Shown here: piece after piece, positions 8,768 through 60,440 of the stretch
Layout: each line of letters begins with the position of its first letter
Numbering within the stretch: the first letter of the stretch is position 1
Assembly (NCBI GenBank): GCA_963668695.2
Contig: CAXXLQ010000004.1
Coordinates: 2,875,187 to 2,939,186, forward strand
From: Vicinamibacteria bacterium
Lineage (GTDB): Bacteria > Acidobacteriota > Vicinamibacteria > Marinacidobacterales > Marinacidobacteraceae
Length of the DNA: 64,000 bases
Direction of reading: 5' to 3'
Notes under the pieces: model-generated
What the model was told of the DNA's origin: nothing
The model's database searches: none
The model's input: the letters and a program-made list of their open reading frames with translations, nothing else
Position numbers and translations under genes: made by a program

Positions 8768-9109
8768 TAGCAGCCGGTGGGCAAAGTGACGTGAGCGCCG
8801 AGAGCGGTGAGGCGCCCGGCTGACAAGGCGCGTGAGGGAGGAATACCGGGTGTATTTCGACCGAAGCGCAACGATGAGCGGCGCGAAGCGACGCGTTTCA
8901 GCCGGGATGGATCGCCGCTCGAACGCCGTGTGGGTTTTGCCACAGGCTGCTAAGCAGCGCGTTTCAGCCGGGATGGATCGCCGCTCGCTTCCGGAGCGGG
9001 GCGCTAGCACCGCGGAGACCCCGGAGCGGAAGAGACGGGGGACGGGGCTGCCCGACCCCCATCTCTGCTGGCTCGGGAACGCCGCGTGACCTTGTCTACC
9101 GGCTGCTAA
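8768..9109. repeat. Mosaic MITE/REP-like element locus R1 (two units)
   Basis: Unit 1 is TAGCAGCCGGTGGGCAAAGTG ... conserved core ... GGGTTTTGCCACAGGCTGCTAA (8768-8953). Unit 2 runs from 8951 to ACCGGCTGCTAA at 9109. It fills nearly the whole amidase-fabI spacer. Confidence 0.85.
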
Positions 9110-9121
9110 ATTGGGAGCAAC

Positions 9122-9919
9122 GTGCTACTGGAAAAGAAACGAGGGCTGATCGTCGGGGTCGCGAACCACCGCTCCTTTGCGTGGGGCATCGCCCGGTCTA
9201 CGGCGCGCGAGGGCGCCGAGCTCGCCCTCAGCTTCCAGAACGAGCGGCTCCAGCGCAATGTGGACAAGCTGGCGGCCGGGCTCCCGGGGACCATCACCTT
9301 TCCGCTCGACGTCTCGAGCGAAGAGCAGTTGGAGCGCGCGGTCGAGACCGTCCGGGAACGTTTCGGCGGGCTTGACTTCCTGGTCCACGCCGTCGCCTAC
9401 GCGCTGCGCGAGGACCTCAAGGGCGATTTCGTTTCCACCTCCCGCGAAGGGTTCCGGGTGGCCCACGACATCTCGGTCTATTCGCTGACGGCGCTGGTCC
9501 GGCACTTCGCGCCGCTGCTCGAGGCGGACGGAGGCGGTTCGGCCCTGACCCTCAGCTACCTGGGAGGCGAGCGGGCGGTTCCCCACTACAACGTGATGGG
9601 GGTGGCCAAGGCGGCGCTCGAGTCCTCGGTCCGTTACCTGGCCAGCGACCTGGGTCCGCGCGGCGTTCGGGTGAACGCGATTTCGGCAGGCCCGGCAAAG
9701 ACGCTCGCCGCCTCGGGAGTCTCCGGAATCGGAAAAATGGTGGAGCACTACCGCGAATACGCGCCGCTCCGCGCCGGCACCGATCCGATGGAAGTGGGAG
9801 ACGCGGCGGCGTTCCTCCTGTCCGACGCCGCGCGCGGAATTACCGGCGAAGTGCTGCATGTGGACAGCGGATTTCACGCGCTGGGCGCGACGATTCCCGG
9901 ATTGGGCGTTGGGGCCTAG
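9122..9919 (+). CDS. fabI: enoyl-ACP reductase (NADH)
   Basis: GLIVGVANHRSFAWGIA N-terminus and the Tyr/Lys catalytic region YLGGERAVPHYNVMGVAKAALE. GTG start preceded by GGGAG. Confidence 0.9.
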   Translation: MLLEKKRGLIVGVANHRSFAWGIARSTAREGAELALSFQNERLQRNVDKLAAGLPGTITFPLDVSSEEQLERAVETVRERFGGLDFLVHAVAYALREDLKGDFVSTSREGFRVAHDISVYSLTALVRHFAPLLEADGGGSALTLSYLGGERAVPHYNVMGVAKAALESSVRYLASDLGPRGVRVNAISAGPAKTLAASGVSGIGKMVEHYREYAPLRAGTDPMEVGDAAAFLLSDAARGITGEVLHVDSGFHALGATIPGLGVGA

Positions 9920-9930
9920 CGGACAAGGCG

Positions 9931-11226
9931 ATGACCGATCCGACCCGGAACGCTGAAGAGCGGGGAGATCCGCGATTTCCGACGGGGAACGGCAACGTTC
10001 CCACCACGAAGGCGCTGATTTACGACTGGAATCGGCCGGATCCCGACAACGCCTGGTTCCCGCCCAAACCGGTCCTGCTGAACGACGAGACGCTCCGGGA
10101 CGGGCTCCAGAGCCCGTCGGTCGTGTCGCCCTCGCTCGAGAACAAGGCGAAGGTGCTCCACCTGATGGAGTCGCTGGGGATTCACTCGGCCGACATCGGG
10201 CTTCCCGCCGCCGGCCCGCACGTGGAGGAGCAGGTCCTGCATCTCGCCCGGGAGATCGTGGACAACCGGATGAAAATTCGTCCCAACTGCGCGGCGCGCA
10301 CGGTCATCTCCGACATCGAGCCGATTGCGCGGGTGGCCGACAAGGTCGGCATACCGATCGAGGTCGCGATGTTCATCGGGTCGAGTCCCATCCGCCAGTA
10401 CGCCGAGGATTGGAACCTCGATCTGCTGCTCCGCCACACCGAAAAGGCGGTGTCGTGGGCGGTCGCCCACGGCGTGCCGCCGATGTATGTGACCGAGGAC
10501 ACCACCAGGGCGCGTCCCGAGAGCATCCGCCGGCTCTACACGGCGGCGATCGAGGCGGGGGCGCGGCGCGTGGTGGTCTGCGACACCGTGGGGCACGCAA
10601 CCCCGGACGGAGTCACGCGCCTGCTGCGTTTCGTTCGCGGGGTGATCGATGACACCGGAGAGGACGTCCAGCTCGACTGGCACGGGCACCGGGACCGGGG
10701 ACTGTCCGTCCCGAACAGCCTCACCGCGATCGAAGCCGGCGCCGACTGCGTTCACGGGACCGCGATCGGCATCGGGGAGCGCTGCGGCAACGCGCCGATG
10801 GATCAGTTGCTCGTGAACCTGCGCCTCCTCGGGTGGATCGACAACGACCTGACCCACCTGGCCGACTATTGCCAGACGGTTGCCGAAGCCACTTCGACCC
10901 GCATCCCGCCCGGCTATCCGGTGGTTGGGAAGGACGCCTTTCGGACGGGGACCGGCGTGCACGCCGCGGCCATCATCAAGGCGATGGCCAAGGGCGACGA
11001 ATGGCTGGCGGACCGCGTCTATTCGGGCGTCCCGGCCGGGGACTACGGCCTCCACCAACAAGTCGAGGTCGGCCCCATGAGCGGCCTTTCGAACGTCATC
11101 TACTGGCTGCAAAAGCATGGACACGAGCCGACCGACGAGTTGAAGCACCGGATCTTTCGCGCGGCCAAGGACGCGCGACGGCTGCTGACCGATGACGAAA
11201 TCGAGGCGCTGATCGCGTCCCCCTGA
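9931..11226 (+). CDS. HMGL-like / 2-isopropylmalate synthase-family (DRE-TIM) enzyme, paralog of leuA
   Basis: LNDETLRDGLQSP, DWHGHRDRGL, and TAIGIGERCGNAPMDQLL (metal-binding HxH and GERxGN motifs). No LeuA regulatory domain. Confidence 0.7.
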   Translation: MTDPTRNAEERGDPRFPTGNGNVPTTKALIYDWNRPDPDNAWFPPKPVLLNDETLRDGLQSPSVVSPSLENKAKVLHLMESLGIHSADIGLPAAGPHVEEQVLHLAREIVDNRMKIRPNCAARTVISDIEPIARVADKVGIPIEVAMFIGSSPIRQYAEDWNLDLLLRHTEKAVSWAVAHGVPPMYVTEDTTRARPESIRRLYTAAIEAGARRVVVCDTVGHATPDGVTRLLRFVRGVIDDTGEDVQLDWHGHRDRGLSVPNSLTAIEAGADCVHGTAIGIGERCGNAPMDQLLVNLRLLGWIDNDLTHLADYCQTVAEATSTRIPPGYPVVGKDAFRTGTGVHAAAIIKAMAKGDEWLADRVYSGVPAGDYGLHQQVEVGPMSGLSNVIYWLQKHGHEPTDELKHRIFRAAKDARRLLTDDEIEALIASP

Positions 11227-11250
11227 TCGCGTCCCCCTGATCGCGTCCCC
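11209..11250 (+). repeat. 3 x 14-bp tandem repeat (CTGATCGCGTCCCC) spanning the stop codon of the preceding gene, followed by a GCGTCCC/GGGACGC hairpin
   Basis: Direct reading. The unit contains TGA, and the 14-bp period places one TGA in each of the three frames. Confidence 0.85.
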
Positions 11251-11331
11251 CTGACGGGACGCGTCGGGTTTGTCCGGCCGGCTATTGCCACTAGTGTCAT
11301 GTCACATGTGATATGTCGTATTTGACGGTAG

Positions 11332-12025
11332 CCTGCTCGTCGCCCAACGAGGGCGAGGAGGCCGCAATCCCCGCAGGGCAACGCGGACTTCGCGGCGGCG
11401 ATGGAGCGAGTGCTGGATGTCTATCGGCGTCCCTACGATGCGGCCTTTCCGGTCGTGTGCATGGACGAGACGCCCCGGCAACTGATCGGGGAGACCCGGG
11501 TGCCCATCCCGTCGGCACCGGGGCGGGCGCTGCGCCAGGACTACGAGTATCGGCGCTGCGGAACCTGCAACGTGTTCATGGCGAGCGAGCCTCTGGCTGG
11601 GCGGCGCATGACCAAGGTCACGGCCCGGCGAACCAAGACCGACTGGGCGCACTTCCTCAACGACATCGCCAAGCGGCACCCCGATGCCAAGCGGATCACG
11701 CTGGTGATGGACAACCTCAGGCACGCACCGCCCCGGCGCCTTCTACGAGACCTTTCCCCCGGCACGAGCCAAGGCGCTGTGGGACCGCTTTGAGTTCGTC
11801 TACACCCCCAAGCACGGCAGTTGGCTCAACGTCGCCGAGGTCGAACTCAATGTCCTGATCCGTCAGTGCCTCAACCGTCGCATTGACTCCCTCGAGACCC
11901 TGCGCGACGAGGTCGCGGCCTGGCAGGCGTCCCGAGACCGCATCCAGGCCAAGGTCAACTGGCAGTTCACCACGGACGATGCCCGCGTCAAGCTGAAACG
12001 CCTCTACCCGACACTTGATGAATGA
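11332..12025 (+). pseudogene. IS630-family DDE transposase remnant (N-terminal DNA-binding domain missing, 1-nt frameshift near 11725)
   Basis: ADFAAAMERVLDVYRRPYD..VVCMDETP..DYEYRRCGT..ITLVMDNL, then after the frameshift GAFYETFPPARAKALWDRFEFVYTPKHGSWLNVAEVELNVL..KLKRLYPTLDE. Only ~40 nt separate the left IR from the mid-gene sequence. Confidence 0.8.
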
Positions 12026-12030
12026 CAGGA

Positions 12031-13398
12031 CACTAGTGCGACATGTTCGGCTCCAACCGAACCCGCTAGAGCGACATGTTCCCGGGCAGATCCTGCTAGT
12101 GCGACATGTTCCGATCCAGCCGGCCCGGCTAGTGCGACATGTTCCCCCGGGCAGATCCGGCTACTGCGACATGTTCGGCTCCAGCCGATCCCGCTACTGC
12201 GACATGTTTCCCGGGCAGATCCGGCTACTGCGACATGTTTCCCGGGCAGATCCGGCTACTGCGACATGTTCGGCTCCAGCCGATCCCGCTACTGCGACAT
12301 GTTCCCCCCGTAGATCCGGCTATTGCGACATGTTCGGCTCCAGCCGATCCCGCTAGAGCGACATGTTCCCCCCGCCGAACCGGTTAGAGCGACATGTTCG
12401 GCTCCAGCCGACCCCGCTAGAGCGACATGTTCCCCGGGCAGATCCGGTTAGTGCGACATGTTCGCCTCCAGCCGATCCCGCTAGAGCGACATGTTCCCCC
12501 CGCAGATCCGGTTAGTGCGACATGTTCGGCTCCAGCCGATCCCGCTAGAGCGACATGTTCCCCGGCAGATCCGGCTAGTGCGACATGTTCGGCTCCAGCC
12601 GATCCCGCTAGAGCGACATGTTCCCCCCGCAGAACCGGTTAGAGCGACATGTTCGGCTCCAGCCGATCCCGCTAGAGCGACATGTTCCCCGGCAGATCCC
12701 GCTAGTGCGACATGTTCGGCTCCAGCCGATCCCGCTAGAGCGACATGTTCCCCGGCAGAACCCGCTACTGCGACATGTTCGGCTCCAGCCGACCCCGCTA
12801 GAGCGACATGTTCCCCGGCAGATCCGGCTAGTGCGACATGTTCGGCTCCAGCCGACCCCGCTAGAGCGACATGTTCCCCCCGCAGATCCGGCTAGTGCGA
12901 CATGTTGGGCTCCAGCCGATCCCGCTAGAGCGACATGTTCCCCGGCAGATCCCGCTAGTGCGACATGTTCGGCTCCAGCCGACCCCGCTAGAGCGACATG
13001 TTCCCCCCGCAGATCCGGCTAGTGCGACATGTTCGGCTCCAGCCGATCCCGCTAGAGCGACATGTTCCCCGGCAGATCCGGCTAGTGCGACATGTTCGGC
13101 CCCGGCCTCCAGCGGTTAGTGCGACATGTTCGGCCCCAGCCGATCCCGCTAGAGCGACATGTTCCCCGGCAGATCCCGCTAGAGCGACATGTTCGGCTCC
13201 AGCCGATCCCGCTAGAGCGACATGTTCCCCGGCAGGCTAGAGCGACAGCCGATCCCGCTAGAGCGACATGTTCGGCTCCAGCCGATCCCGCTAGAGCGAC
13301 ATGTTCCCCGGCCGATCCCGCTAGAGCGACATGTTCGGCTCCAGCCGATCCCGCTAGAGCGACATGTTCCCCCCGCAGATCCGGCTACTGCGACATGT
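12031..13398 (+). repeat. Tandem array: 43 copies of 17-nt box CTAG[A/T/C]GCGACATGTTC with two alternating fillers (63-65-bp higher-order unit)
   Basis: Manual count gives 43 GCGACATGT cores plus one truncated box at ~13228. Filler A is GGCTCCAGCCGATCCCG and filler B is CCC(CC)GGCAGATCCGG. The first box is continuous with the IS right end. Confidence 0.95.
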
Positions 13399-13513
13399 CA
13401 GGCGTCCCGAGACCGCATCCAGGCCAAGGTCAACTGGCAGTTCACCACGGACGATGCCCGCGTCAAGCTGAAACGCCTCTACCCGACACTTGATGAATGA
13501 CAGGACACTAGTA
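13399..13513 (+). repeat. Second copy of the 115-bp IS right end (duplicate of 11924-12038)
   Basis: CAGGCGTCCCGAGACCGCATCCAGGCC...CTTGATGAATGACAGGACACTAGT is identical by eye to 11924-12038 except for the last base (A vs G). Confidence 0.9.
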
Positions 13514-13552
13514 GCGGTCCGCCGATCCGGGGATCGCCGCTGTTCGTGGCGG

Positions 13553-14434
13553 CTACCGCCGCGAGAGGACGGTAGCCACGCCCTCGTGGATGAGACGCGC
13601 GGCGAGGATCAGCGTCCGGTGGTCGCGGTCGTCCGGACAAGCCTCCACGACATCCATCCCCAGGAGGCGGCGCCCCGAAGTTGCGATTTCCTTGACGAGC
13701 TCGAGCCCCGCCCGCGCCGACAGCCCGCCCGGAACCGGATGGGCCACCGCCGGGGCGAAGGCCGGGTCGAACCCGTCCATATCCACCGTCAGGTAGATCG
13801 CGGCACCCTCCGGGAGGTGGGACAGGAGCGCCGTTCGCCTCTCCGCCTCCCAGGCCGGAATCTGCGTGACCCGGCCACCCGACGACTCCCGGATCCCGCG
13901 CTGCACCGAGGTCTCGGTACGGACTCCGATCTGGGTGATGCTCGCCACGTGCGGCATTTCCAGCAGGCGGGCGGCAACGCAGGCGTGGGAGTCCGGGTTG
14001 CCCTCGAAGTCCGGATACATGTCGGGATGGGCGTCCCACTGGACCACCTGGATCGGACCTCGTCCCGCGTAGGCGGCCACCAGCGCGGGGGTGATCGCGT
14101 GGTCGCCCCCGAGGATGAAGGGAGTCCGGCCCCGTGCGAGTTCCGCCTCGATCGCGGCCCGATACCGCGCGGCGTTCTCCCGGAAACCCGCACCGTCCGG
14201 CCCCAGGTCGCCAACGTCCGCAACACTCCCCGCGCAGTCCACCCCGCTCTCGGAGACCGGGTTGTAGCAGGCGCCGTCGTAGGCGGCGCGGATCGCGGGC
14301 GGCGCCTCGGCGCAGCGATCGCGGTAGGTGGACTGGGTCGCGTCCATGACGCCGAGCAGGGAGACGGAGGAATGTTCGGCGTCCGCGCCGGCCGCGATCA
14401 GACCCCCAAACGGGATTCTGGTTGGTTCGTGCAC
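13553..14434 (-). CDS. speB: agmatinase/ureohydrolase (arginase family)
   Basis: ILGGDHAITP, VQWDAHPD, and VDMDGFDPAFAPAV (Mn-binding motifs). GTG start at 14434 chosen from the alignment-like N-terminus IPFGGL. The upstream part of the ORF looks non-coding. Confidence 0.8.
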   Translation of the reverse strand: MHEPTRIPFGGLIAAGADAEHSSVSLLGVMDATQSTYRDRCAEAPPAIRAAYDGACYNPVSESGVDCAGSVADVGDLGPDGAGFRENAARYRAAIEAELARGRTPFILGGDHAITPALVAAYAGRGPIQVVQWDAHPDMYPDFEGNPDSHACVAARLLEMPHVASITQIGVRTETSVQRGIRESSGGRVTQIPAWEAERRTALLSHLPEGAAIYLTVDMDGFDPAFAPAVAHPVPGGLSARAGLELVKEIATSGRRLLGMDVVEACPDDRDHRTLILAARLIHEGVATVLSRR

Positions 14435-14476
14435 GCCGGTATGTTGGCAGCACGCGGCATTTAAGCTCCCGGGAAG

Positions 14477-16024: not shown

Positions 16025-16036
16025 GGCCGCCGGGCC

Positions 16037-17350: not shown

Positions 17351-17448
17351 GGTCGGTCGGGCCTCCGGAAACACCCGAGCATATCGACCTTGGATCGCTG
17401 GCTGACCGCCGCCTGATCTTGACCGCAGGCTGCTAGCGTTCCCGGACC

Positions 17449-18354: not shown

Positions 18355-18626
18355 ACACCCGCATGCGCCGGATCGGCTGGCTCGTTTTCGGCCTTTTCGC
18401 CCTGCTCGTCGTCTTCCTGGTGACTTCAACGCTCACCATGGGCGAGGCGCGCTGCGAAGTGACCATGGAAATGGTGGGTCGCCAGGCCACCGTGACCGCC
18501 CGGGGAGCAACGGAGGCCGACGCGATTCGGGCGGCGGTTACCGGGGCCTGCGCCCGGATCGCGGACGGCCGGACGGCGAACATCCGCTGTCTGGATTCGC
18601 CGCCCCGCTCGGTTCGCTGCGACTAA
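18351..18626 (+). CDS. small membrane-anchored hypothetical protein
   Basis: GTGA overlap with the preceding gene. N-terminal TM IGWLVFGLFALLVVFLV followed by a Cys-containing domain. Its TAA stop lies inside the terminus of repeat R2. Confidence 0.45.
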   Translation: MNTRMRRIGWLVFGLFALLVVFLVTSTLTMGEARCEVTMEMVGRQATVTARGATEADAIRAAVTGACARIADGRTANIRCLDSPPRSVRCD

Positions 18627-19113
18627 CAGCCTGTGGTGAAAGCACCCCGCACGAGCCCCAGGAGGTCGCGCGCGGCGAATCCGTCGGTTTGTGTGCGTGC
18701 GGGGCGCTTTCCCCTCCCCACACCCCACCCCCGCGGCGCTGCGCGCCGCGAATGGATGCCTTCCGGGTTTCACCACAGGCTGTTAACAGCCGGTGGTGGA
18801 ATCCGGGTCAGCGCCGAGGCCGGCCAGTTCTTTTGGTGGGGGCGAGGCCCAGTTCTCCCGGTGGGGGTCCGGCTGACAAGGCGCGTGAGGGAGGAGCCCC
18901 CACCGGGAGAACTGGCCCGGGTGTATTTCGACCGAAACGCAACGATGAGCGGCGCGCAGCGACGCGGCTCAGCCGGGATGGATCGCTGGCCGAGCCCCCA
19001 CCGGGAGAACTGGGCCGCGTGGGTTCCACCACCGGCTGTTTGGCCGGGATGGATCGCCGGGCGAGCCCCCACCGGGAGAACTGGGCCGCCTGGGTTTCAC
19101 TACAGGCTGTTAA
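18623..19113. repeat. Mosaic MITE/REP-like element locus R2 (two units, nested 20-nt modules)
   Basis: Unit 1 is TAACAGCCTGTGGTGAAAGC ... GGGTTTCACCACAGGCTGTTAA (to ~18787). Unit 2 then follows, with the conserved core split by CCCCCACCGGGAGAACTGGCC and two extra terminal sub-modules, ending CACTACAGGCTGTTAA. Confidence 0.85.
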
Positions 19114-22296: not shown

Positions 22297-22300
22297 GCCG

Positions 22301-25462: not shown

Positions 25463-25540
25463 TTCCCGCCACCCTGGGAGTGCCCGCGGGCATCGCGATG
25501 GCGCCGGCGTGCTGCAATTTGCCGGGACGCACGCGCCCAG

Positions 25541-25628
25541 TTGTTGTGAGAATGCAGTAGCGCCGGGACGCCGACAGCCCAGCTGGCGCGCTGCCAGGGA
25601 ACGCCGGGCAGTTCTCCCGGTGGAGCCC
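25541..25628 (+). repeat. Second repeat family (B), copy B1, inserted into a CAGTTCTCCCGGTGG module
   Basis: GTTGTTGTGAGAATGCAGTAGCGCCGGGACGCCGACAGCC..CTGGCGCGCTGCCAGGGAACGCCG matches 59298-59379. It is followed by GGCAGTTCTCCCGGTGGAGCCC. Confidence 0.75.
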
Positions 25629-25814
25629 TTCAGACCGGCACCGCGGCCCGGGGGGCCGCGAAACCGCGTACCGTCGATTGCGAAGAAGCGCGGGGTGTGC
25701 AGGCCCCGATCATGGGGATTTCCCCCCCGCGGTTGGTAGCATCGTCGCCGGACCGGCGCCGGTTTCGCCGACTACCTTGGAACCCGACCCGGCGCTCCCA
25801 ACGGAAACGGATTT

Positions 25815-32928: not shown

Positions 32929-33573
32929 CAACAACCTGTGGTGAAACCCAGGCGGCGTTCAAGCGGCGATCGATCCCGCCGGAATACAACCCGGTATTCC
33001 TCCCTCACGCGCCTTGTCAGCCGGGCCCCCACCGGGAGGACTGGCCCCACCGGGAGAACTGGGCCTCGCCCCCACCGGGAGGACTGGCCGACCTCGGCGC
33101 TCACGTGGGTTCCACCACCGGCTGTTCACCGCGTCGCTTCGCGCCGCTCATCGTTGCGTTTCGGTCGGAATACACCCGGTATTCCTCCCTCACGCGCCTT
33201 GTCAGCCGGGCCCCCACCGGGAGGACTGGCCCCACCGGGAGAACTGGGCCTCGCCCCCACCGGGAGGACTGGCCAACCTCGGCGCTCACGTGGGTTCCAC
33301 CACCGGCTGTTCACCGCGTCGCTTCGCGCCGCTCATCGTTGCGTTTCGGTCGGAATACACCCGGTATTCCTCCCTCACGCGCCTTGTCAGCCGGGCGCCT
33401 CCCCGGCCTCGGCGCTCCCGTGGGCTCCACCACCGGCTGTTCACCGCGCCGCTTCGCTCCGTTCTGCGTTGCGTTTCGGTCGAAATACACCCGGCATTCC
33501 TCCCTCACGCGCCTTGTCAGCCGGGCGCCTCACCGCTCTCGGCGCTCACCCGGGTTCCACCACAGGCTGTTAG
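32929..33573. repeat. Mosaic MITE/REP-like element locus R3 (three tandem ~190-bp copies of the core, reverse orientation)
   Basis: Period ~190 bp (e.g. GGCGCTCACGTGGGTTCCACCACCGGCTGTTCACC recurs at ~33097 and ~33287). Ends CCACCACAGGCTGTTAG, 13 nt before the ilvE ATG. Confidence 0.85.
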
Positions 33574-40969: not shown

Positions 40970-41535
40970 GCGGCCTGCGACGCTGTGGCTGGGCCGAGGG
41001 CACGTTCCCTGCGTACGTGCGTTACCACGACGAGGAATGGGGCCTGCCGGTGCGCGAGGACCGCACGCAGTTCGAGTTCCTCGTCCTCGAGTCCGCCCAG
41101 GCCGGCCTGAGCTGGGCCACGATCCTGAAACGCCGCGAGGGCTACCGGAAAGCGTTTGCCGGCTTCGATCCGGACCGGGTTTCCCGTTTCCGGAGGCCGC
41201 GCATCGAGGGACTCGTCCAGAACCCGGCAATCATCCGCAACCGCGCGAAGGTCGAGGCCGCGGTGAACAACGCCAAGCGTTTTCTGGAAGTGCAGCAGGA
41301 GTTCGGCAGCTTCAGCACCTACATCTGGGGTTTCGTCGGGGGTTCTCCCCAGGTCAGCCGCTGGGAGCGGGACGATGAGGTGCCAACGACCTCGGGCGAA
41401 TCCACGGCTCTCGCGAAAGACATGAAGGTGCGCGGGTTCCGGTACGTTGGGAGCACGATCCTCTACGCTCACATGCAGGCCACCGGACTCGTGAACGACC
41501 ACCTGGTCTCGTGTTTTCGGCACCGGGAGGTTTAG
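40966..41535 (+). CDS. tag: DNA-3-methyladenine glycosylase I
   Basis: RCGWA, YHDEEWG, and LESAQAGLSWATIL. TTGA overlap with leuD. The TAG stop is the first 3 nt of repeat R4. Confidence 0.85.
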   Translation: MSGLRRCGWAEGTFPAYVRYHDEEWGLPVREDRTQFEFLVLESAQAGLSWATILKRREGYRKAFAGFDPDRVSRFRRPRIEGLVQNPAIIRNRAKVEAAVNNAKRFLEVQQEFGSFSTYIWGFVGGSPQVSRWERDDEVPTTSGESTALAKDMKVRGFRYVGSTILYAHMQATGLVNDHLVSCFRHREV

Positions 41536-41822
41536 CAGCCGGTGGTGAAACCCAGGCGGCGTTCGGCCAGCGATCCATCCCGGCCAAACAGCCGGTAATG
41601 AAACCCGCGCGGCGTTCGGCGGCGATCCATCCCGGCCAAACAGCCTGTAGTGAAACCCGCGCGGCGTTCGGCGGCGATCCATCCCGGCTGAACCGCGTCG
41701 CTGCGCGCCGCTCGTCGTTGCGTTTCGGTCGAAATACACTCGGTATTCCTCGCTCACGCGCCTTGTCAGCCGGGCGCCTCGCCACTCTCGGCGCTCACGC
41801 CACTTTGCCCACAGGCTGCTAG
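41533..41822. repeat. Mosaic MITE/REP-like element locus R4 (three ~53-nt terminal sub-modules plus core, reverse orientation)
   Basis: TAGCAGCCGGTGGTGAAACCC.. with sub-modules starting at 41536, 41589 and 41641. The core follows, ending ..CACTTTGCCCACAGGCTGCTAG. Confidence 0.88.
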
Positions 41823-44278: not shown

Positions 44279-44550
44279 TGACAGCCGGTGGTGGGACCCA
44301 CGCGACGTTCGGCCGGCGATCCATCCCGGCGAAACAGCCTGTAATGGAACCCGCGCGGCGTTCGGCCGGCGATCCATCCCGGCTGAACCGCGTCGCTACG
44401 CGCCGCGCATCGTTGCGTTTCGGTCGAAATACACTCGGTATTCCTCCCTCACGCGCCTTGTCAGCCGGGCCCCCACCGGGAGAACTGGCCCCACCGGGAG
44501 AACTGGGCCTCGCCGGCCTCGGCGCTCGCGCGGGTCCCACCACCGGCTGT
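44279..44550. repeat. Mosaic MITE/REP-like element locus R5
   Basis: TGACAGCCGGTGGTGGGACCC.. sub-modules, the core (GGCTGAACCGCGTCGCTACGCG..CTTGTCAGCC), tandem CCCACCGGGAGAACTGGCC modules, then ..GGGTCCCACCACCGGCTGT. Confidence 0.85.
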
Positions 44551-49922: not shown

Positions 49923-49926
49923 ACGG

Positions 49927-51261: not shown

Positions 51262-52003
51262 TCGGGGCGCGAGCGGGACCTACCCAAGGGCGGGGTCCTG
51301 GTGTTCCCGGGCTTTCTTCGCGGCAAGCCCCGTCTATCCCATCGTGGACGCGAGCCTCTTCGGTGACGGAGATCCTGGCCCGGTTCTCCGGGCGCTCGGG
51401 GCCGCCGGGATCAGACTGGTTCAACTTCGGGGCAAGGGGATGCCGAGCGGAGCCTTCGTGTCCTGGGTATCAGCCGGAGTTCGCGCTGCTTCCGCGCGTG
51501 GGGTCCGGGTGCTGGTGAACGACCGTGCCGACGTCGCTCTGTTGACCGGTGCCGACGGAGTCCACCTCGGGCAGCACGATCTCTCCGCGAGGGCGGCCCG
51601 GAGGCTGCTGGGAGCCCGTGCCGTCATAGGCCTTTCCACCCACAATCGGGAGGAAATGCGCGCCGCCCGGCGCGAACCCGTCGACTATCTTGCCGTGGGA
51701 CCGGTGTTCGAAACCCCGACGAAAGCTGATTCCGCTCCCGTGGTTTCGCTGAAGGGCGTTCGGCAGGCACGGCGCCGCTACGAGGGACCGCTGGTTGCGA
51801 TCGGCGGGATCAGTCAGTCCCGGATACGCGCGGTGCTTGCCGCGGGAGCCGACGCGGCCGCGGTGATCTCGGCAGTGTCCGGTTCCTCGCCCCGGGAAAT
51901 CGCCGCTAGGGCGCGAGCGCTGCTGGCCGCGGCCGCAGGCGAGCCTCCGCGAGCGGGACCGGGCCGCGTGACTTTGTCCACAGGCTGCCAAGGAGAGTAT
52001 TGA
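51224..52003 (+). CDS. thiE: thiamine-phosphate synthase
   Basis: YPIVD, VQLRGK, VNDRADVALLTGADGVHLGQHDL, AVGPVFETPTK, AIGGI. No canonical start lies between the accC stop and the conserved YPIVD, so GTG 51224 (38-nt overlap with accC) is a guess. GTG 51354 is the alternative. Confidence 0.75.
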   Translation: MASTPGSSDVSADRGASGTYPRAGSWCSRAFFAASPVYPIVDASLFGDGDPGPVLRALGAAGIRLVQLRGKGMPSGAFVSWVSAGVRAASARGVRVLVNDRADVALLTGADGVHLGQHDLSARAARRLLGARAVIGLSTHNREEMRAARREPVDYLAVGPVFETPTKADSAPVVSLKGVRQARRRYEGPLVAIGGISQSRIRAVLAAGADAAAVISAVSGSSPREIAARARALLAAAAGEPPRAGPGRVTLSTGCQGEY

Positions 52004-52929
52004 TGTCGGGAAGAATCCTGGATGGGAAGAGAATCGGTGCCGCGATTCGCGCCGATGCCGCCGAGGCGGCTCGGGAGTTTGCGCGTGGCGGTCGCCTCCC
52101 CGGGCTGGCGGTGGTGCTCGTGGGAGACGATCCTGCCTCCGCGATCTATGTGCGGGGAAAGATCAAGGCGTCGCGGGAGGTGGGGATCATCTCGGAGACT
52201 CATCGTCTGCCGGCGACGACGAAGGCGCCGGAACTGGCCGGACTGCTGGAGCGGCTGAACCAGGACGAATCGGTGGACGCGATCCTGCTTCAGCTCCCTT
52301 TGCCGGGGGGGCTCGATGCGTCGGAGTTCCTGGCCCGGATTCGTCCGGACAAGGATGTCGACGGTTTTCATCCCGAAAACGTGGGCCGGCTGGTGGCCAA
52401 CCTCCCCGGCCCGAGCCCCTGTACCCCCGCGGGAATCATGGAGATGTTCCGCCGCGAAGGGATCGAGGTGCGTGGCTCCCGGGCGGTAGTGGTCGGGCGG
52501 AGCGACATCGTGGGCAAGCCCCTGGCGCTCCTGCTGCTGCATCAACACGCCACCGTTACGGTTTGCCACTCGCGGACGCGGGACCTCCCCGCGGTGTGCC
52601 GGGAGGCGGACATCCTCTGCACGGCGATCGGCCGGCCGGCGATGATTGGGGCGGACGCCATCCGCGAAGGTGCGGTCGTGGTGGACGTGGGGATGAACCG
52701 CGCCACTACCGAGGATGAGGTGCGCGATTTCTTTGGAGACGATGACAAGCGGCTGGCCCGCTTCCGGAGGAACGGGTACACCCTGGTCGGTGATGTCCAT
52801 CCGGTGGCGATGCGGGAACGGTCTTCCGCCTACACCCCGGTTCCCGGTGGAGTCGGACCACTCACCATCGCAATGCTGCTGGCAAACACCGTCGCTCTTG
52901 CCGCCGCCCGCCGGGCATCTTGCCCTTAA
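52003..52929 (+). CDS. folD: bifunctional methylene-THF dehydrogenase/cyclohydrolase
   Basis: ILDGK, VLVGDDPASAIYVRGK, DKDVDGFHPENVG, TPVPGGVGP. Confidence 0.93.
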   Translation: MSGRILDGKRIGAAIRADAAEAAREFARGGRLPGLAVVLVGDDPASAIYVRGKIKASREVGIISETHRLPATTKAPELAGLLERLNQDESVDAILLQLPLPGGLDASEFLARIRPDKDVDGFHPENVGRLVANLPGPSPCTPAGIMEMFRREGIEVRGSRAVVVGRSDIVGKPLALLLLHQHATVTVCHSRTRDLPAVCREADILCTAIGRPAMIGADAIREGAVVVDVGMNRATTEDEVRDFFGDDDKRLARFRRNGYTLVGDVHPVAMRERSSAYTPVPGGVGPLTIAMLLANTVALAAARRASCP

Positions 52930-52935
52930 CAGCCT

Positions 52936-53544
52936 GTGCTTCGGATCGGTCTCACTGGCGGGATCGCCTCCGGGAAAACGACGGTACGCCGGGTTTTCGA
53001 GCGCACCGGCATCCCCATGCTCGATGCGGACGCGCTGACGCACGAGTTCTTTCTTCCTGGCGGCGAACTGGTGGAAGCGATTGCGAGCCACTTTGGTCCC
53101 GACGTGATCGCCCCGGGGGGCGGCATCGAAAGAAAGATTCTGGGGGCTCGAGTCTTTGCCAACCCCGCGGAGCGGGGATGGCTGAACAACGTGGTGCATC
53201 CGCGGATCTGGGAGCGGATCGGCGCTTTTCTGGATGAGTGCGAACGGCGGGGAAGAGGGGTCGCCGGCATCGAGGCCGCGCTCATGGTGGAGACCGGTAG
53301 CGCGGCGAACTACGACCGGATCGTCGTTGTCGTCTGCCGTCCGGAACAGCAGTTCGAGCGCCTCACGGCCCGCTCCGGGATGAGCCCGGAAGAGGCTCGT
53401 CTGCGTCTCGCCGCCCAGATGGATCCCGTAGAGAAAGCAGGGCAGGCCGATGACCTGGTGGATGCGTCCGGAACCCTGGAGGAGACCGAAGCAGCGGCCG
53501 GAGCGCTCGCCCACGCACTCCTCGCGCGCGCTGCGGGGGCGTGA
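52936..53544 (+). CDS. coaE: dephospho-CoA kinase
   Basis: RIGLTGGIASGKTTV P-loop at the N-terminus. Length ~200 aa. Confidence 0.88.
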   Translation: MLRIGLTGGIASGKTTVRRVFERTGIPMLDADALTHEFFLPGGELVEAIASHFGPDVIAPGGGIERKILGARVFANPAERGWLNNVVHPRIWERIGAFLDECERRGRGVAGIEAALMVETGSAANYDRIVVVVCRPEQQFERLTARSGMSPEEARLRLAAQMDPVEKAGQADDLVDASGTLEETEAAAGALAHALLARAAGA

Positions 53545-53561
53545 CCGCCCGCGGGGCCAGC

Positions 53562-54075
53562 TAGCAGCCGGTGGTGAAACCCACGCGGCCCAGTTCTCCC
53601 GGTGGGGGCTCGGCCGGCGATCCATCCCGGCCAAACAGCCGGTGGTGGAACCCACGCGGCGTTCGGCCGGCGATCCATCCCAGCCAAACAGCCGGTGGTG
53701 GAACCCACGCGGCGTTCGGCCGGCGATCCATCCCAGCTGAACCGCGTCGCTTCGCGCCGCTCATCGTTGCGTTTCGGTCGGAAAACACCCGGGCCAGTTC
53801 TCCCGGTGGGGGCTCCTCCCTCACGCGCCTTGTCAGCCGGGCGCCTCGCCCCCACCGGGAGGACTGGCCAACCTCGGCGCTCACGTGGGTTCCACCACCG
53901 GCTGTTCACCACTCCGCTTCGCTGCGTTTTGCGTTGCGTTTCGGCCGGAAAACACCCGGGCCAGTTCTCCCGGTGGGGGCTCCTCCCTCACGCGCCTTGT
54001 CAGCCGGGCGCCTCGCCCCCACCGGGAGAACTGGCCGCTCTCGGCGCTCACCCGGGTTCCACCACCGGCTGCTAA
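53562..54075. repeat. Mosaic MITE/REP-like element locus R6 (three sub-modules plus two core copies with nested inserts)
   Basis: Starts TAGCAGCCGGTGGTGAAACCC, with repeated CAGCCGGTGGTGGAACCCACGCGGCGTTCGGCCGGCGATCCATCCC units. Two cores are interrupted by CCGGGCCAGTTCTCCCGGTGGGGGCTCC. Ends ..CCACCACCGGCTGCTAA. Confidence 0.88.
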
Positions 54076-54674: not shown

Positions 54675-54688
54675 CGAAGCTCGGCCGG

Positions 54689-56389: not shown

Positions 56390-56621
56390 GCGGGACGTGA
56401 TTCTACCAGAACACGCCTTTCCGGCGGATGGCGCCCGGAGGGACCGTCCCAATGGGAGGGCGCGGGGGAGCGTCGGGTGCGGAGCCGTCCCGCTGTACTC
56501 CGTTGTTCGGTAGTGGTCCCGTCGGCGCGCCCAAAGCAATCGGTGGACCAGAACCCGACCCCTATTCGTCCGGCCAGAACTTTGAGAAGAAATCGCTCGC
56601 AATCTCGTCTGATGTCTTGGG

Positions 56622-57749
56622 ATGCCCGACCGACTGCCAGTATCGCCGCCCTCAGATCCATCCGGCCCCCCGGTGGGACTCGCCCGGCTCCTGAAGCACC
56701 TCGTGAGTGTCGGCGGGAGCGATCTTCACCTCAGGCCCGGAGCCGTTCCTCGCCTGCGGATCGATGGTCGGCTCATCCAGGCCGAGGGGGAACCGCTTCC
56801 CGCAGGCATGGTGGAGTCGATGGTCGCCGCCGGAATCCCGGAGCGCCACCGCGCGCTGCTCGAGCAGGGTGGTGAGGCTGACTACTCCTTCACCCTGACC
56901 GGGGTCGCCCGCTTTCGCGGCAGTGTCTTTCGCTGCCGAGGGGCGCTTGCCGCGGTCTATCGGGTGGTTGCTGACGAAGTTCCATCGCTGGATGCGCTTG
57001 GGTTGCCGGCAAGCGCGGCGAAGCTCGCCGCCCTCGGCTCCGGTCTGGTCCTCACTTCCGGTCCGGTCGGGTCGGGGAAGTCCACCACCATGGCGGCCAT
57101 CCTGGACCGGATCAACCGCACGCGCGCGGTCCATATTGTCACCGTCGAGGATCCGGTGGAAGTCATCCACCAGAATCGACGCGCCCTGGTAACGCAGCGG
57201 CAGGTCGGAAGCGACACCAACTCCTTTCACGCCGCTTTGAGGTCCGTTCTGCGCTCCGACCCGGACGTGGTGATGATTGGAGAGGTTCGCGATCGGGAGA
57301 CGGTAGACGCGGCGCTCCGGGTGAGTGAAACCGGACACCTGGCGCTCGCCACGATTCACGCCCGGTCGGCGCTCCACGCGCTGACCAGCGTCGTGGAAAT
57401 GTTCCCGGCGTCTCAACATCGCCAGGCCCGTATCCGGCTCTCCGCCTCGCTCGAGACGATCTACTGCCAGCGTCTTGTTCCACGCGCCGATGGACGCGGA
57501 CGCGTGCTTGCCGTCGAGCAACTCGCGCCCACGGCTGCGGCGCGCAACCTGATCCGCGAGGACAAGCTGCACCAGCTCTTTGCCGTCATGGATGCGGGCG
57601 CGGGGCAGGGAGCGGTGGTCTCTCTCAACGAGGCGCTGGCTTCGTTGTGCCGCCGGGGCATCGTTACCCGGAGCGACGCCCTCGCCGCATCGAACGAACC
57701 GGTGAAATTGACCGCCGCGCTCCGGTCCGCAACCAACGACCGAGGTTAG
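56622..57749 (+). CDS. pilT: type IV pilus retraction ATPase PilT
   Basis: GGSDLHL, Walker A SGPVGSGKSTT, VVMIGEVRD, LALATIHA. The TAG stop is the start of repeat R7. Alternative GTG start at 56673. Confidence 0.88.
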   Translation: MPDRLPVSPPSDPSGPPVGLARLLKHLVSVGGSDLHLRPGAVPRLRIDGRLIQAEGEPLPAGMVESMVAAGIPERHRALLEQGGEADYSFTLTGVARFRGSVFRCRGALAAVYRVVADEVPSLDALGLPASAAKLAALGSGLVLTSGPVGSGKSTTMAAILDRINRTRAVHIVTVEDPVEVIHQNRRALVTQRQVGSDTNSFHAALRSVLRSDPDVVMIGEVRDRETVDAALRVSETGHLALATIHARSALHALTSVVEMFPASQHRQARIRLSASLETIYCQRLVPRADGRGRVLAVEQLAPTAAARNLIREDKLHQLFAVMDAGAGQGAVVSLNEALASLCRRGIVTRSDALAASNEPVKLTAALRSATNDRG

Positions 57750-58124
57750 CAGCCTGTGGCAAAACCCACGCGGCCCAGTTCTCCCGGTGGGGGCTCGACC
57801 GGCGATCCATCCCGGCTGAACCACTCCGCTTCGCTGCGTTCTGCGTTGCGTTTCGGTCGAAATACACCCGGTATTCCTCCCTCACGCGCCTTGTCAGCCG
57901 GGCCCCCACCGGGAGAACTGGCCCCACCGGGAGAACTGGGCCTCACCGGCCTCGGCGCTCACCCGGGTTTCACCACAGGCTGCCAGGAGCCGGTGGACAA
58001 GGTCGCGCGGTCCGGTTCTCCCGGCGGGGGCTCGAGCGGCGATGCATCCCGACGCAAACACCCCCCACCGGGAGAACCGGACCGCACCATTCTCGGCGCT
58101 CACGCCACGTTGTCCACAGAGTCC
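57747..58124. repeat. Mosaic MITE/REP-like element locus R7 (two units)
   Basis: Unit 1 is TAGCAGCCTGTGGCAAAACCC.. core ..GGGTTTCACCACAGGCTGCC (to ~57984). Unit 2 is GGAGCCGGTGGACAAGGTCGCGCGG ... CGCCACGTTGTCCACAGAGTCC. Confidence 0.85.
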
Positions 58125-58156
58125 GGGTACCGCATGCGGCCGTTGGAGAGACTTCG

Positions 58157-59269
58157 GTGATCTTCCGATCGGCAGGGCGCGCGAGAACGTCGTCCGGGGT
58201 CATTCGCGGGGTTTCGGGTTGGATTTCCCTGAAGTCCGTCAGCCGCAGGAAGATCGCGGTCACGGTGCGGCAACTGGGAGTCATGGTGGGCGCGGGGCTG
58301 CCACTTGCCGAGAGTCTGTCCGTCCTCCAGCATCAGGAGGAGAACCGGCGGCTGCGGACCACGGTGGAGATGATCGCCCGCGACGTCGAATCGGGTAGTT
58401 CGCTTGCCATGGCGATGAGCCGCCATCCACGGATTTTCGGCCGGCTCGCGGTGGCTATGACTTCCATCGGAGAGGCAAGCGGGCGCCTTGATCAGAGCCT
58501 TCTTCGTCTGGCAACGGAACTCGAAAAGGCAGCGGCAGTGACGCAGCATGTCCGTGGAGCGTTCGCCTATCCCCTGGTCGTGGGCGCCATCGGAGCGCTC
58601 GTGGTTTCGGTAATCCTGTGGCGCGTGGTACCTGTCTTCAACGAGCTCTACGAGGGCCTCGATGCCGAGTTGCCTCTCCTGACCCGTATCGTGGTTGACG
58701 CATCCCGATCGTTCGGGTCGTGGGCGCTCGGAGCGTCGACTGCCGTCGTCGGCATTGCGTTGGGAGTCACCCGAATTCGGCGGACTGAGCGCGGAGGCGC
58801 CTTGTGCGACCGCCTCGCCCTTCGCATCCCGATGCTCGGAGGCCTGCTGCGGCGTGCGGGAATCTCGCGGTTTTGCCGAACCCTGTCGGTACTGACGGGG
58901 GCCGGGGTTCCGGTACTGGAGGGACTGGACATCGCCCGCCGCGCCGTGGGAAACCGGCATCTCGAAGGAGCGATATCGAGCGTTCGTTCGAGAGTGGAGG
59001 CGGGAGCCTCCCTCGCGATCCCGCTTCGGCAGACCGGACTGTTCCCACCCATGGTGGTGCAGATGGTTGCGGTGGGGGAGCGTACCGGGGAACTCGAAAT
59101 GTCGCTGGAAAAAGTTGCGGAGTTCTACGAGGAGGAGGTGCGGCGGACGACCGCAACCATCCTGCCTCTCATCGAGCCCCTGTTGATCCTCGTTCTGGGC
59201 CTGGTGGTCGGGGCGATCGTGATCGCGATGTATCTCCCGATCTGGACGCTCGTCGGCCGTTTGGGGTAA
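58157..59269 (+). CDS. pilC: type IV pilus platform protein PilC (GspF family)
   Basis: Two GspF repeats (VRQLGVMVGAGLPLAESL.. and FCRTLSVLTGAGVPVLEGL..) and C-terminal MYLPIWTLVG. GTG start just after R7. The N-terminus is ~35 aa shorter than classical PilC. Confidence 0.85.
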   Translation: MIFRSAGRARTSSGVIRGVSGWISLKSVSRRKIAVTVRQLGVMVGAGLPLAESLSVLQHQEENRRLRTTVEMIARDVESGSSLAMAMSRHPRIFGRLAVAMTSIGEASGRLDQSLLRLATELEKAAAVTQHVRGAFAYPLVVGAIGALVVSVILWRVVPVFNELYEGLDAELPLLTRIVVDASRSFGSWALGASTAVVGIALGVTRIRRTERGGALCDRLALRIPMLGGLLRRAGISRFCRTLSVLTGAGVPVLEGLDIARRAVGNRHLEGAISSVRSRVEAGASLAIPLRQTGLFPPMVVQMVAVGERTGELEMSLEKVAEFYEEEVRRTTATILPLIEPLLILVLGLVVGAIVIAMYLPIWTLVGRLG

Positions 59270-59379
59270 CAACCGGTGGACAAAGTCGCACGGCGCGGTT
59301 GCTGTGCAAATGCAGTAGCGCCCGGACGCCGACAGCCGGACGCCGACAGCCTGGATGGCGCGCTGGCAAGGGAACGCCG
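59267..59379 (+). repeat. Half mosaic element (TAACAACCGGTGGACAAAGTCGC) joined to repeat-family-B copy B2
   Basis: The pilC TAA lies in TAACAACCGGTGG. 59298-59379 matches B1 (25541-25606) and has an internal GGACGCCGACAGCC duplication. Confidence 0.75.
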
Positions 59380-59697
59380 ACCTCTGGCCTCCATCGCGCG
59401 GGAGCGCGAAACGAGCGCCGATGACGTTGCGCCATGCCAAGGTGAGGGCCGCGTCTTTTTGCCGCGTCTTTTTCATGACGGGCGAGGGTGTGCAGGAGGA
59501 CCCGATCATGGGGGTTTCTTCCGGTCGGGCCTCGGCGTCCATCCTCTCGGCTACCGGCGGCCGGGGGCAACCACGAAATCCTGCGCTGTCTCTCAGCCTC
59601 GCCGTCCCGCCTGGACGGGTGCGAGTGGGGCGCCGTTCGCCTGCGGCCTCGTCTCCGCCGGCGCGATCCACGAATCGTCCAAGGAGGACGTATCCTT

Positions 59698-60348
59698 ATG
59701 AAACACACCGACTCCGTCTTTCCGGTCCGGGACTTCCACATGAAAGAGCCACATTCGGGGCCCATCGTCCAGGGGACGAAGAGGCTCGAGGCGTGCTCCC
59801 GCCATTCGCCTCCGTCTGCCGGCTTCACTCTTATCGAATTGCTGATCGTCATTGCGATCATCGGGGTGATTGCCGGAATTGCCATTCCGCAGTTGTTGCG
59901 CGCGCGTTTGTCCGCGAACGAGGCGCAGGCGATCGGAGACTCGCGGGCGGTAATTGCGGCGCAGCAGACCTATGCGGCCTCCAACTGCGGATTCTTCGCC
60001 GACCTTACAAACCTCTGCCGTAACGGCGCCGATTGCGGCGGGGCGATCGGAATTCCCGACTATCCGGACGCCGCCCCGGAATTCGTTGGTGGGGATCTGG
60101 GGCGGACGAGTCCGTACGTGAAAGGTGGATACACCCGGACGCTGACTCCAAACGGGACACCGACTTCCATCCCGGATCACTGTGACCCCGACAGCCTGCT
60201 CGACTACTGCTACCACGCGGAGCCCGCCGACGTCGGACGCACCGGGGTCCGGTCCTTCTCGGCGACGAGTTCCGGAGCGATTTACAACGATCCGTCCGGA
60301 ACGGCGATCGCATGCCCCGTTCCCGCCGCAACCGCGTTCCTCGAATGA
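59698..60348 (+). CDS. pilA: type IV pilin (PilA-like) with unusually long leader
   Basis: Prepilin motif AGFTLIELLIVIAIIGVIAGIAIP. Strong SD AAGGAGGA lies 10 nt before ATG 59698 (leader ~41 aa). Alternative ATG 59740 (leader ~27 aa). Confidence 0.85.
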   Translation: MKHTDSVFPVRDFHMKEPHSGPIVQGTKRLEACSRHSPPSAGFTLIELLIVIAIIGVIAGIAIPQLLRARLSANEAQAIGDSRAVIAAQQTYAASNCGFFADLTNLCRNGADCGGAIGIPDYPDAAPEFVGGDLGRTSPYVKGGYTRTLTPNGTPTSIPDHCDPDSLLDYCYHAEPADVGRTGVRSFSATSSGAIYNDPSGTAIACPVPAATAFLE

Positions 60349-60356
60349 GTCGGGGC

Positions 60357-60440
60357 GAGCAGCCGGTGGACAAAGTCGCGCGGCCCAGTTCTCCCGGTGG
60401 GGCCCTTGGCGCTCACGCCTCTCGGTCCACGGACTGCTAG
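60357..60440. repeat. Minimal (~84-bp) mosaic element R9
   Basis: GAGCAGCCGGTGGACAAAGTCGCGCGGCCCAGTTCTCCCGGTGGGGCCCTTGGCGCTCACGCCTCTCGGTCCACGGACTGCTAG, i.e. the two termini plus one 20-nt module. Confidence 0.8.

Follow-up and report, generated by a model that had tools for sequence, protein, structure and literature searches.

A modular, hairpin-forming family of intergenic repeats in Vicinamibacteria, probably miniature inverted-repeat transposable elements

We analysed a stretch of 64,000 nucleotides from a Vicinamibacteria bacterium (Acidobacteriota; assembly GCA_963668695.2, contig CAXXLQ010000004.1, positions 2,875,187 to 2,939,186 of the forward strand), referred to here as the window, and characterised a family of repeats that occupies its intergenic spacers. 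The window is chromosomal, has a GC content of 68 % and carries housekeeping genes including an amidase gene, fabI, genes for a UvrD-like helicase, a HupE/UreJ-family protein and a class IV aminotransferase, tag, pilM, thiE, folD, coaE, pyrG, pilT, a T2SSF-family gene and a pilin gene; all of the repeat loci are intergenic. A first-pass annotation of the letters alone had described one such family at nine loci, with inverted termini and copies in both orientations, and this description was borne out. For the terminal decamer CAGCCGGTGG (≤ 1 mismatch) 44 occurrences were counted across the window compared with 10.6 ± 3.3 in dinucleotide shuffles, repeat detection placed interlinked families (D4-D20) at the reported loci, and an nhmmer search with a family profile together with a map of seven signature motifs (t, terminus; h, left module; c1, a and c2, left part, apex and right part of the core; i, insert; r, right arm) identified seven loci as full or composite elements and two, 59267-59297 and 60357-60440, as short forms. 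All nine loci share the grammar [t (i) h]n [c1 a c2 (i)* r t]m. The listed spans total 3047 bp or about 5 % of the window, as had been estimated (~3 kb), and elements make up 342 of the 358 bp between the amidase gene and fabI.

Unit and cluster statistics were obtained from the window and 91 related loci (146 motif clusters), which are given L numbers where they need to be told apart, and an alignment (A2) was built from 61 distinct canonical copies from many species. The canonical unit is exactly 179 nt, CAGCC(T/G)GTGG…CCAC(A/C)GGCTG with flanks yTA(G/A)…(C/T)TAr, and the basic element, (G/A)CAGCC(T/G)GTGG…CCAC(A/C)GGCTG(C/T), is 181 bp. Exactly 179 nt separate the outer ends of CAGCC and GGCTG in 49 of 90 units, and in almost all of these yTA(G/A) precedes the left end and (C/T)TAr follows the right end. 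The 61 canonical copies align free of gaps with a mean column identity of 91 % and a mean pairwise identity of 87 %, and their terminal inverted repeats (columns 3-13 with 175-185) are paired in 95.5 % of cells. Element variants span 84-253 nt and have no coding capacity of their own; decayed copies exist, as do subfamilies with the same termini and unrelated interiors (18623-18786 and 8954-9109), copies of which are found in related genomes too.

The commonest architecture, t h c1 a c2 r t, accounts for 24 of the 146 clusters while the remainder add or repeat modules. Left modules of 53 nt and core-plus-right modules of 130-185 nt occur in tandem with junctions at the short repeat CCGGCTG, and unit lengths are quantised (179, 197, 215, 233 and 251 nt), rising from 179 in steps of one 18-nt insert (CCAGTTCTCCCGGTGGGG or the complement of this sequence). 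Its positions are fixed: the left arm, the apex and the right arm, the last with one to three inserts. The modular build and the 53-nt left module thus stand as first described, although the insert measures 18 rather than ~20 nt and the basic unit is exactly 179 nt. The 18-nt inserts have no TA flanks. Left-arm and right-arm inserts co-occur (86 distinct units; odds ratio 11.6, p = 3e-5). In the canonical hairpin the left-arm site does not face the right-arm site, but the inserts pair with each other in the fold. The copy that we call element A is base-for-base identical between the window and a ~98 % identical genome (L092 10928-11114) except for these inserts (57775-57792 and 57904-57939 in the window), which were gained or lost on both arms.

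The comparison of orthologous sites, which had been proposed as a check, revealed both filled and empty sites with duplication of a TA dinucleotide. Relatives 89-98 % identical were used; three of them, L092 (~98 % identical to the window), L093 and L094 (both 94-97 %), are contigs from European Nucleotide Archive (ENA) metagenomes that were reached through PilT homologues, look-ups of proteins identical to FabI and PilT of the window having given none, and Candidatus Marinacidobacterium OZ244986.1 is ~85-90 % identical to the window across shared genes. At a first site L093 and L092 are empty and read GTTTGGGTTAACAGCCGGTGGAC (in short, GGGTTAACAGCC in L093), while L094, whose PilT is identical to that of L093, reads GGGTTA[ACAACC…GGCGGT]TAACAGCC, the 201 extra nucleotides being a 199-nt element plus a second TA. 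At a second site L093 and L094 are empty (GAGGCTAGCAGCCGGTGGACAAGG; in short, GAGGCTAGCAGCCGG) and the window and L092 are filled, GAGGTTA[GCAGCC…GGCTGC]CAGGAGCCGGTGGACAAGG (in short, after element A, CAGGAGCCGG), from which it follows that element A (57747-57984) entered the TA of the CTAG that holds the PilT stop codon, abutting a resident copy, element B. Two further sites are empty in L075 and filled in L038, one reading TCCTTACCGGG against TCCCTA[82 nt]TACCGGG and the other, within flanks that are 95.5 % identical, GGGTTAACGG against GGTTA[179 nt]TCACGG; a fifth is empty in L045, GCGTTAACC, and filled in L070, GTCTA[179 nt…T]TAACC. Between two ~98 % identical genomes one has a complete copy nested within the core of another copy, and at one TA site (L013 2290-2550 and L068 5735-5355) the element lies in opposite orientations, either through independent insertions at a hot spot or through inversion in situ between the arms. 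Presence, absence and module count thus all change between close relatives, and the five filled and empty comparisons (L093/L094, window/L093, two for L075/L038 and L045/L070) show that the element inserts at TA, prefers YTAR (CTAG, TTAA, TTAG or CTAA) and duplicates the TA. A 4-bp duplication of YTAR was considered and rejected, as the outer bases are not directly repeated and act as part of the palindrome or as a target preference. Insertion at TA with duplication of TA is the signature of IS630/Tc1-mariner transposition.

These observations bear on whether the repeats move at all. Non-mobile intergenic repeats could be spread and homogenised by recombination, gene conversion and tandem duplication alone, and processes of this kind would fit the CCGGCTG junctions between tandem modules, the variation of array composition between close relatives and the mirrored 18-nt insertions or deletions that arose in situ between 98 % identical genomes. 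They do not fit complete 181-bp units that are sharply bounded and flanked by TA at sites unrelated to one another, nor insertions whose targets are unrelated in sequence, among them a different repeat family and the core of a further copy, and we regard an origin without mobility as extremely improbable.

The element is almost fully palindromic and either strand can fold into a hairpin of ~85 bp. The long imperfect hairpin that had been predicted is supported by folding energies: a canonical copy reaches -105 kcal/mol compared with -69 ± 4.5 for shuffles (z = -8.2), the 241-nt form of element A has z = -7.1, and the 84-nt form has z = -2.0. In the consensus structure of the 61 copies 97.4 % of cells are paired across 50 pairs, of which 22 show compensatory changes on both sides compared with 10.8 in shuffles (0/500 shuffles get as far); covariation scores 0.185, compared with 0.069 for shuffles and ≤ 0.042 when partners are slid. 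Columns 34-39 and 147-152 occur in at least five mutually complementary versions. Swaps of CG to GC are common in the stem and G.U intermediates rare, and unpaired positions are conserved to nearly the same degree as paired ones. A core block of 39 nt, GGTATTCCTCCCTCACGCGCCTTGTCAGCCGGGCGCCTC, is ≥ 93 % conserved at each column. When folded as RNA the strand running from right arm to left arm is the more stable in 61/61 copies, by 19.8 ± 5.7 kcal/mol, although this asymmetry rests on few consensus positions (-129.5 against -113.7 kcal/mol), and minor-state mismatches on that strand are G.T in 43 cases against 21 (p = 0.008, with cells that are not fully independent). In our reading of these models the hairpin would form in vivo and matter for the success of the element; its upkeep may reflect a requirement of transposition, templated correction within the palindrome or an effect at the RNA level, and we favour none of the three. 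A peptide encoded in the element, suggested by a small open reading frame (ORF) or a Shine-Dalgarno-like GGGAGGA with GTG on the reverse strand, was rejected as the changes compensate stems and do not preserve codons.

Such features could also be expected of a structured RNA or regulatory hairpin selected by the host, acting in processing or stabilisation, attenuation, antisense pairing or protein binding, with mobility secondary or ancient. The compensatory pairs, the 39-nt block, the strand asymmetry of the RNA folds and the G.T excess speak for it, as does the element at the orthologous tag site, which is ~88 % identical beside an unalignable spacer. Orientation points the same way: among 132 core-bearing arrays (the set once L092-L094 were added) crude gene calls placed 62 in co-directional, 31 in convergent and 23 in divergent spacers, and where the spacer is co-directional, arrays read left to right along the genes in 41 cases and against them in 20. 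However, presence and copy number differ between genomes that are 95-98 % identical, copies insert into each other, lie in both orientations and occur in every type of spacer, decayed copies are tolerated, and the strand asymmetry depends on few positions. A scan of the elements for promoters and terminators gave no signal above chance, the two weak terminator-like sites at 53562-54075 being made by an apex insert. No Rfam family reached its gathering score in the window and L019, a locus with two canonical copies, gave none even at E ≤ 1, so that the match to a catalogued RNA family that would have spoken against a new repeat did not materialise. Finally, the variable stems of the copies at the tag site differ, suggesting turnover over descent; together with the existence of decayed copies this argues that conservation is achieved mainly through turnover of active copies and not through host selection on each copy. 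We therefore think host-selected RNA a distinctly unlikely primary explanation.

[quoted passage not shown] Bacterial MITEs are described as shorter than 200 bp, with inverted termini, a terminal TA, a target duplication and a long stem-loop (PMC2229807). Non-coding elements of small size (up to ~300 bp), inverted termini, TA duplication and many polymorphic copies were all found here; an insertion sequence (IS) with the same termini was not, in ~760 kb of related DNA. Excision and insertion would be carried out in trans by a DDE transposase of IS630/Tc1-mariner type encoded elsewhere in the genome. Given rare TA and YTAR sites, insertion would fall mostly at stop codons and at the TA beside resident copies, leading to pile-ups downstream of genes and to nesting, and variety would come from duplication of the 53-nt left and 130-185-nt core-plus-right modules, bounded by CCGGCTG, and separately from the 18-nt insert. 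If only copies retaining the hairpin and the 39-nt core were amplified, both would be kept; the 39-nt block could be a binding site for the transposase or a host factor, or could act in a single-stranded intermediate. Effects on the host, such as supplied stop codons and large hairpins in transcripts, would probably be incidental.

Three IS630-family elements with TA flanks were found in the same genomes as the MITEs, with cTAg as target in two of them, the copies in L001 and in the window. In Ca. Marinacidobacterium a complete element of 1144 bp (L001 5477-6620; L020 ~4187-5330 in reverse) has 19-bp inverted ends, GTGTGG(T/C)GTCCCGCAAATA, within 23-nt arms that include the cTAg flanks, and encodes a 362-aa protein with a helix-turn-helix (HTH) region and a DDE_3 domain; the target TAG completes the stop codon of this protein's gene, and the homologues of the protein are named 'IS630 family transposase' at NCBI. 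It occupies a TA at which a related genome (L031) has a MITE, and adjoins a degenerate MITE. A second, frameshifted element (L017 2752-3877) lies exactly between two MITEs and has ends TACA(C/T)A(A/G)CGCC…, with HTH and DDE_3 in separate frames joined at an A7 run, which may be a programmed frameshift site. The third is a remnant in the window, which keeps the C-terminal part of DDE_3 (ORF 11708-12025) and lacks the N-terminal HTH; its 16-nt inverted ends, CACTAGTGTCATGTCA and TGACAGGACACTAGTG, are flanked by cTAg and unlike those of the MITEs. The earlier statement that the window holds no transposase with matching ends is thus literally correct, but this remnant with the same cTAg target lies within it. 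Similarly, the search for a cognate transposase that had been suggested yielded IS630-family elements and none with matching ends in ~760 kb of related DNA. ORFs enclosed by family termini 700-3000 nt apart proved to be ordinary genes between separate elements and were dismissed as a parent IS. The only likeness between IS and MITE ends is TAG-N5-TGT in register. A mobiliser of IS630 type is thus inferred from target and context, the partner IS not having been found.

Movement by another route would be expected if the repeats were REP/REPIN-like, built on repetitive extragenic palindromic (REP) sequences moved by a REP-associated tyrosine transposase (RAYT, of the Y1 HUH type), or if they were palindrome-associated elements of IS200/IS605 type moving as single-stranded hairpins. 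A REP is a palindrome of ~20-35 nt that has a conserved GTAG-type motif at its 5' side and is set in inverted doublets, while elements of IS200/IS605 type have asymmetric ends with subterminal hairpins and insert 3' of a fixed tetra- or pentanucleotide. IS200/IS605-type Y1 HUH transposition, and by inference RAYT-mediated movement of REPINs, is not known to produce a target duplication. Hairpin covariation similar to that found here is known from REPINs, in which compensatory changes affect both hairpin arms (PMC3116915), the strand bias of wobble pairs would fit a single-stranded intermediate and the mosaic build recalls the bacterial interspersed mosaic elements (BIMEs). In contrast, there is no unit of GTAG plus short palindrome, the ends reading TA(G/A)CAGCC… and GTAG being confined to the inside of a less common version of the terminal decamer; the ends are inverted repeats of symmetric build, flanked on either side by a TA that is duplicated; and the transposases nearby are of DDE_3 type and share the cTAg target. 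In the sampled DNA no gene for a Y1 transposase came to notice, no search aimed at Y1 having been made. Of the first-pass label, MITE/REP-like, the MITE half thus holds (small, non-coding, inverted termini, hairpin, dispersed) and the REP/RAYT half, with no GTAG unit and with TA duplicated, does not, and we judge this route very unlikely.

Several observations weigh against the MITE interpretation that we prefer. In three of the five comparisons the second TA or the base adjacent to the end differs (TA…CA, TA…TC or a missing base), some junction flanks have diverged, and two flank pairs vary as an inverted and not as a direct repeat (CA…TG in L018 and L038). The ~760 kb of related DNA contains no IS with the element's own termini, and the three IS630-family elements were rejected as parents since their ends differ and the elements share only words at chance level with the MITE consensus. 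Covariation along the whole stem and a near-invariant block of 39 nt exceed what a transposase that binds termini would need, and neither the 18-nt insert nor the tandem left modules are accounted for by insertion at TA. In a bolder variant the hairpin and 39-nt core would be selected as single-stranded nucleic acid of one particular strand, either a transposition intermediate or a transcript that serves the cell, for example as a hairpin in processing or regulation, and the 18-nt sub-module would have an insertion mechanism of its own and tend to appear on both arms; the family would then be a long-lived, vertically persisting replicator like the REPINs, though driven by a DDE transposase; we offer this as a speculation and hold it to be unlikely.

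The TA dinucleotide is 2.6-fold under-represented in the window (617 observed against 1594 expected). There are 65 YTAR sites in all, 37 of them within 11285-13420, a region with the IS remnant and an adjoining tandem array; 15 of the 28 sites in the remaining ~62 kb flank elements and several others overlap stop codons, as in the fabI TAG at 9917-9919. Because TA and YTAR are so rare in a genome of 68 % GC, stop codons and the TA beside resident copies are the main available targets, and this scarcity would explain why elements start at or a few bases past stop codons (tag, 41533; pilT, 57747), why copies lie head to tail and why spacers are nearly filled.

The family also occurs widely beyond the window, as would be expected of a genuine repeat family, for which absence elsewhere had been named as the refuting observation. 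When one genome per species was scanned for exact matches to the core 20-mer TCACGCGCCTTGTCAGCCGG, at least 91 stretches were returned, and all matches listed lay in metagenome-assembled genomes of Acidobacteriota, either of Candidatus Marinacidobacterium, of other Vicinamibacteria or binned from sponge metagenomes; a check of the lineage of the carriers gave Vicinamibacteria. Nothing similar to the element was found among PLSDB plasmids, and the literature that we searched on Marinacidobacterium, on MITEs of sponge symbionts and Acidobacteria and on REP elements held nothing on this family. Judged by these comparisons the family appears to be undescribed, yet of a known class, the bacterial MITEs.

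The closest analogues appear to be RUP, which is linked to IS630, and the Correia elements, which share TA duplication and have no known transposase. RUP of Streptococcus pneumoniae is likewise small and non-coding with inverted termini, TA duplication and a long stem-loop, has many dispersed copies, inserts into other mobile elements and has an IS630-family transposase in its host, IS630-Spn1 being proposed to mobilise it (PMC2229807). The present family differs in that no IS with matching termini was found, in its GC-rich and not AT-rich genome and in its length (~181 bp against 107 bp for RUP), and further in being a nearly full palindrome with compensatory stem evolution and modular arrays that is common to many species of a class. 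Correia elements of Neisseria (CREE/NEMIS) resemble it in TA duplication, inverted termini, predicted long hairpin transcripts, length variants by an internal block, frequent positions next to genes and the want of an identified cognate transposase (PMC2229807). They are unrelated in sequence, and tandem and nested arrangements are far more frequent in the present family, which also has an 18-nt sub-module. An IHF binding site and the processing of transcribed hairpins by RNase III are further traits of Correia-like elements. With REPINs and their RAYTs the family has in common that a doublet able to form a hairpin is what replicates, that changes in the two arms compensate each other and that lineages keep the repeat for long (PMC3116915), whereas the family described here has no GTAG-type REP, has TA duplication and has DDE (IS630-family) and not Y1 transposases nearby. 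In the BIMEs of E. coli and the BOX elements of pneumococcus, too, a few short modules fill the spacers in changing number and combination. BIME and BOX are built on REP units or on boxA/B/C and are not known to duplicate TA, whereas the building block here is a defined TA-flanked transposon of 181 bp.

The family probably fills several hundred intergenic spacers per genome in uncultured marine and sponge-associated Acidobacteria, organisms of ecological importance, and it breaks gene calls through spurious ORFs that run through elements and stop codons that derive from element ends. Where strains are 95-98 % identical it flags recent changes in their genomes, and it lends itself as a natural data set to the question of why compensatory change maintains a hairpin over the full length of some MITEs. 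With the consensus and grammar, genomes can be masked or annotated and the transposase can be sought. What lifts the family above the routine is the degree and breadth of its conservation, the compensatory hairpin over its full length, the nested 18-nt module and activity between near-identical strains.

Table 1. Elements of the repeat family and associated features in the window. Rows marked 'new' were absent from the first-pass annotation.
Feature	Coordinates	Strand	Evidence
Canonical unit of 179 nt, composed of left module, core and right end; flanks CTAG/CTAA; amidase-fabI spacer	8767..8953	-	A2 row; nhmmer E=1.3e-57; motif map
Second element, same terminus and h motif, different interior (same-end subfamily)	8954..9109	-	Motif map; copies in L083, L079, L014, L039
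Truncated IS630-family insertion sequence (context)	11291..12036	+	tblastn; Pfam PF13358, 36.7 bits; inverted repeat I3
Lone degenerate left (T) module, divergent spacer; new	17391..17437	-	nhmmer E=3.7e-4
Subfamily B: same termini, unrelated interior, CTAA/TTAA flanks	18623..18786	.	Motif map; partial copies in L008, L014, L036
Full unit with four 18-nt inserts and an extra insert-bearing left module	18784..19113	-	Motif map; nhmmer E=7.8e-35, 4.2e-6
Array: one left module, then four core-plus-right modules	32929..33573	+	D4, D9; motif map; nhmmer
Three left modules, core and right end	41533..41822	+	Motif map; nhmmer
Two left modules, core, two inserts and right end, upstream of pilM	44279..44550	+	Motif map; nhmmer
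Lone right-end remnant, thiE/folD junction; new	51963..51990	+	Repeat family D16
Array: three left and two core-plus-right modules, apex insert; between convergent coaE and HAD hydrolase gene	53562..54075	+	Motif map; nhmmer
Element A, ends 233 nt apart; one insert in the left arm, two in the right	57747..57984	+	Relatives' comparison
Element B, core-less (left module, insert, right end); in all four relatives	57985..58124	+	Motif map; relatives' comparison
Minimal element C, left part	59267..59297	+	Comparison with intact L092 and L093 copies
Second repeat family: ~215-nt insertion that lies within the 18-nt module of element C	59298..59516	+	Absent from L092, L093, L094; copies elsewhere
Minimal element C, right part	59517..59562 (approximate)	+	Intact-copy comparison
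Minimal form of 84 bp, made up of terminus, insert and right end; kept in L092-L094	60357..60440	+	

The individual loci (Table 1) illustrate how these modules combine. The four inserts at 18784..19113 lie in the right arm (two), the apex and the left module, and two of the core-plus-right modules of the array at 32929..33573 carry three inserts apiece. The first TAG of the element at 41533..41822 is the stop codon of tag, the 3-methyladenine glycosylase gene, and the same site is filled in L019, while the array at 53562..54075 has different module counts in L092 and L093. The TAG of element A is the PilT stop codon; the element is absent from L093 and L094, and the L092 copy is without inserts. 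The minimal 84-bp form first reported at 60357-60440 was recovered, and is kept in L092-L094. The locus at 59267-59297 belongs to the family as proposed but is only the left part of minimal element C, which is split by the 215-nt insertion.

This insertion is one copy of a second dispersed repeat family of ~200 nt (59298-59516 and 25530-25735 in the window, with others in L065, L067, L069, L055 and L082), which starts …AGTTG(C/T)TGTG…AATGCAGTAGCGCC and ends …GGTGTGCAGG…CCGATCATGGGG(A/G)TTTC; the copy at 25530-25735 itself bears an 18-nt module. A tandem array at 12062-13398 abuts the right end of the IS remnant, has a period of 64/127 nt with ~42 subunits of ~32 nt (87 % matches) and holds most of the YTAR sites of 11285-13420. 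Its subunits start CTAG(T/A)GCGACATGTTC, resembling the IS terminus, and the array looks like amplified IS-end-like units. An array of clustered regularly interspaced short palindromic repeats at 12.0-13.4 kb was rejected, as the repeat is tandem with 87 % identity and has no unique spacers. L092 (ENA ERZ25074053 ctg445184_3x) is a long-read contig of low coverage with several frameshifted gene calls, and a PilT-T2SSF fusion ORF in it reads through the element, so that repeats and assembly errors together distort the annotation there. The sequence TTAACAGCCTGTG at 52926-52938, a 12-nt match to the left end of the element, lies directly on the folD TAA stop codon and supplies the GTG start codon of coaE; it is either a chance match or the remnant of an old insertion.

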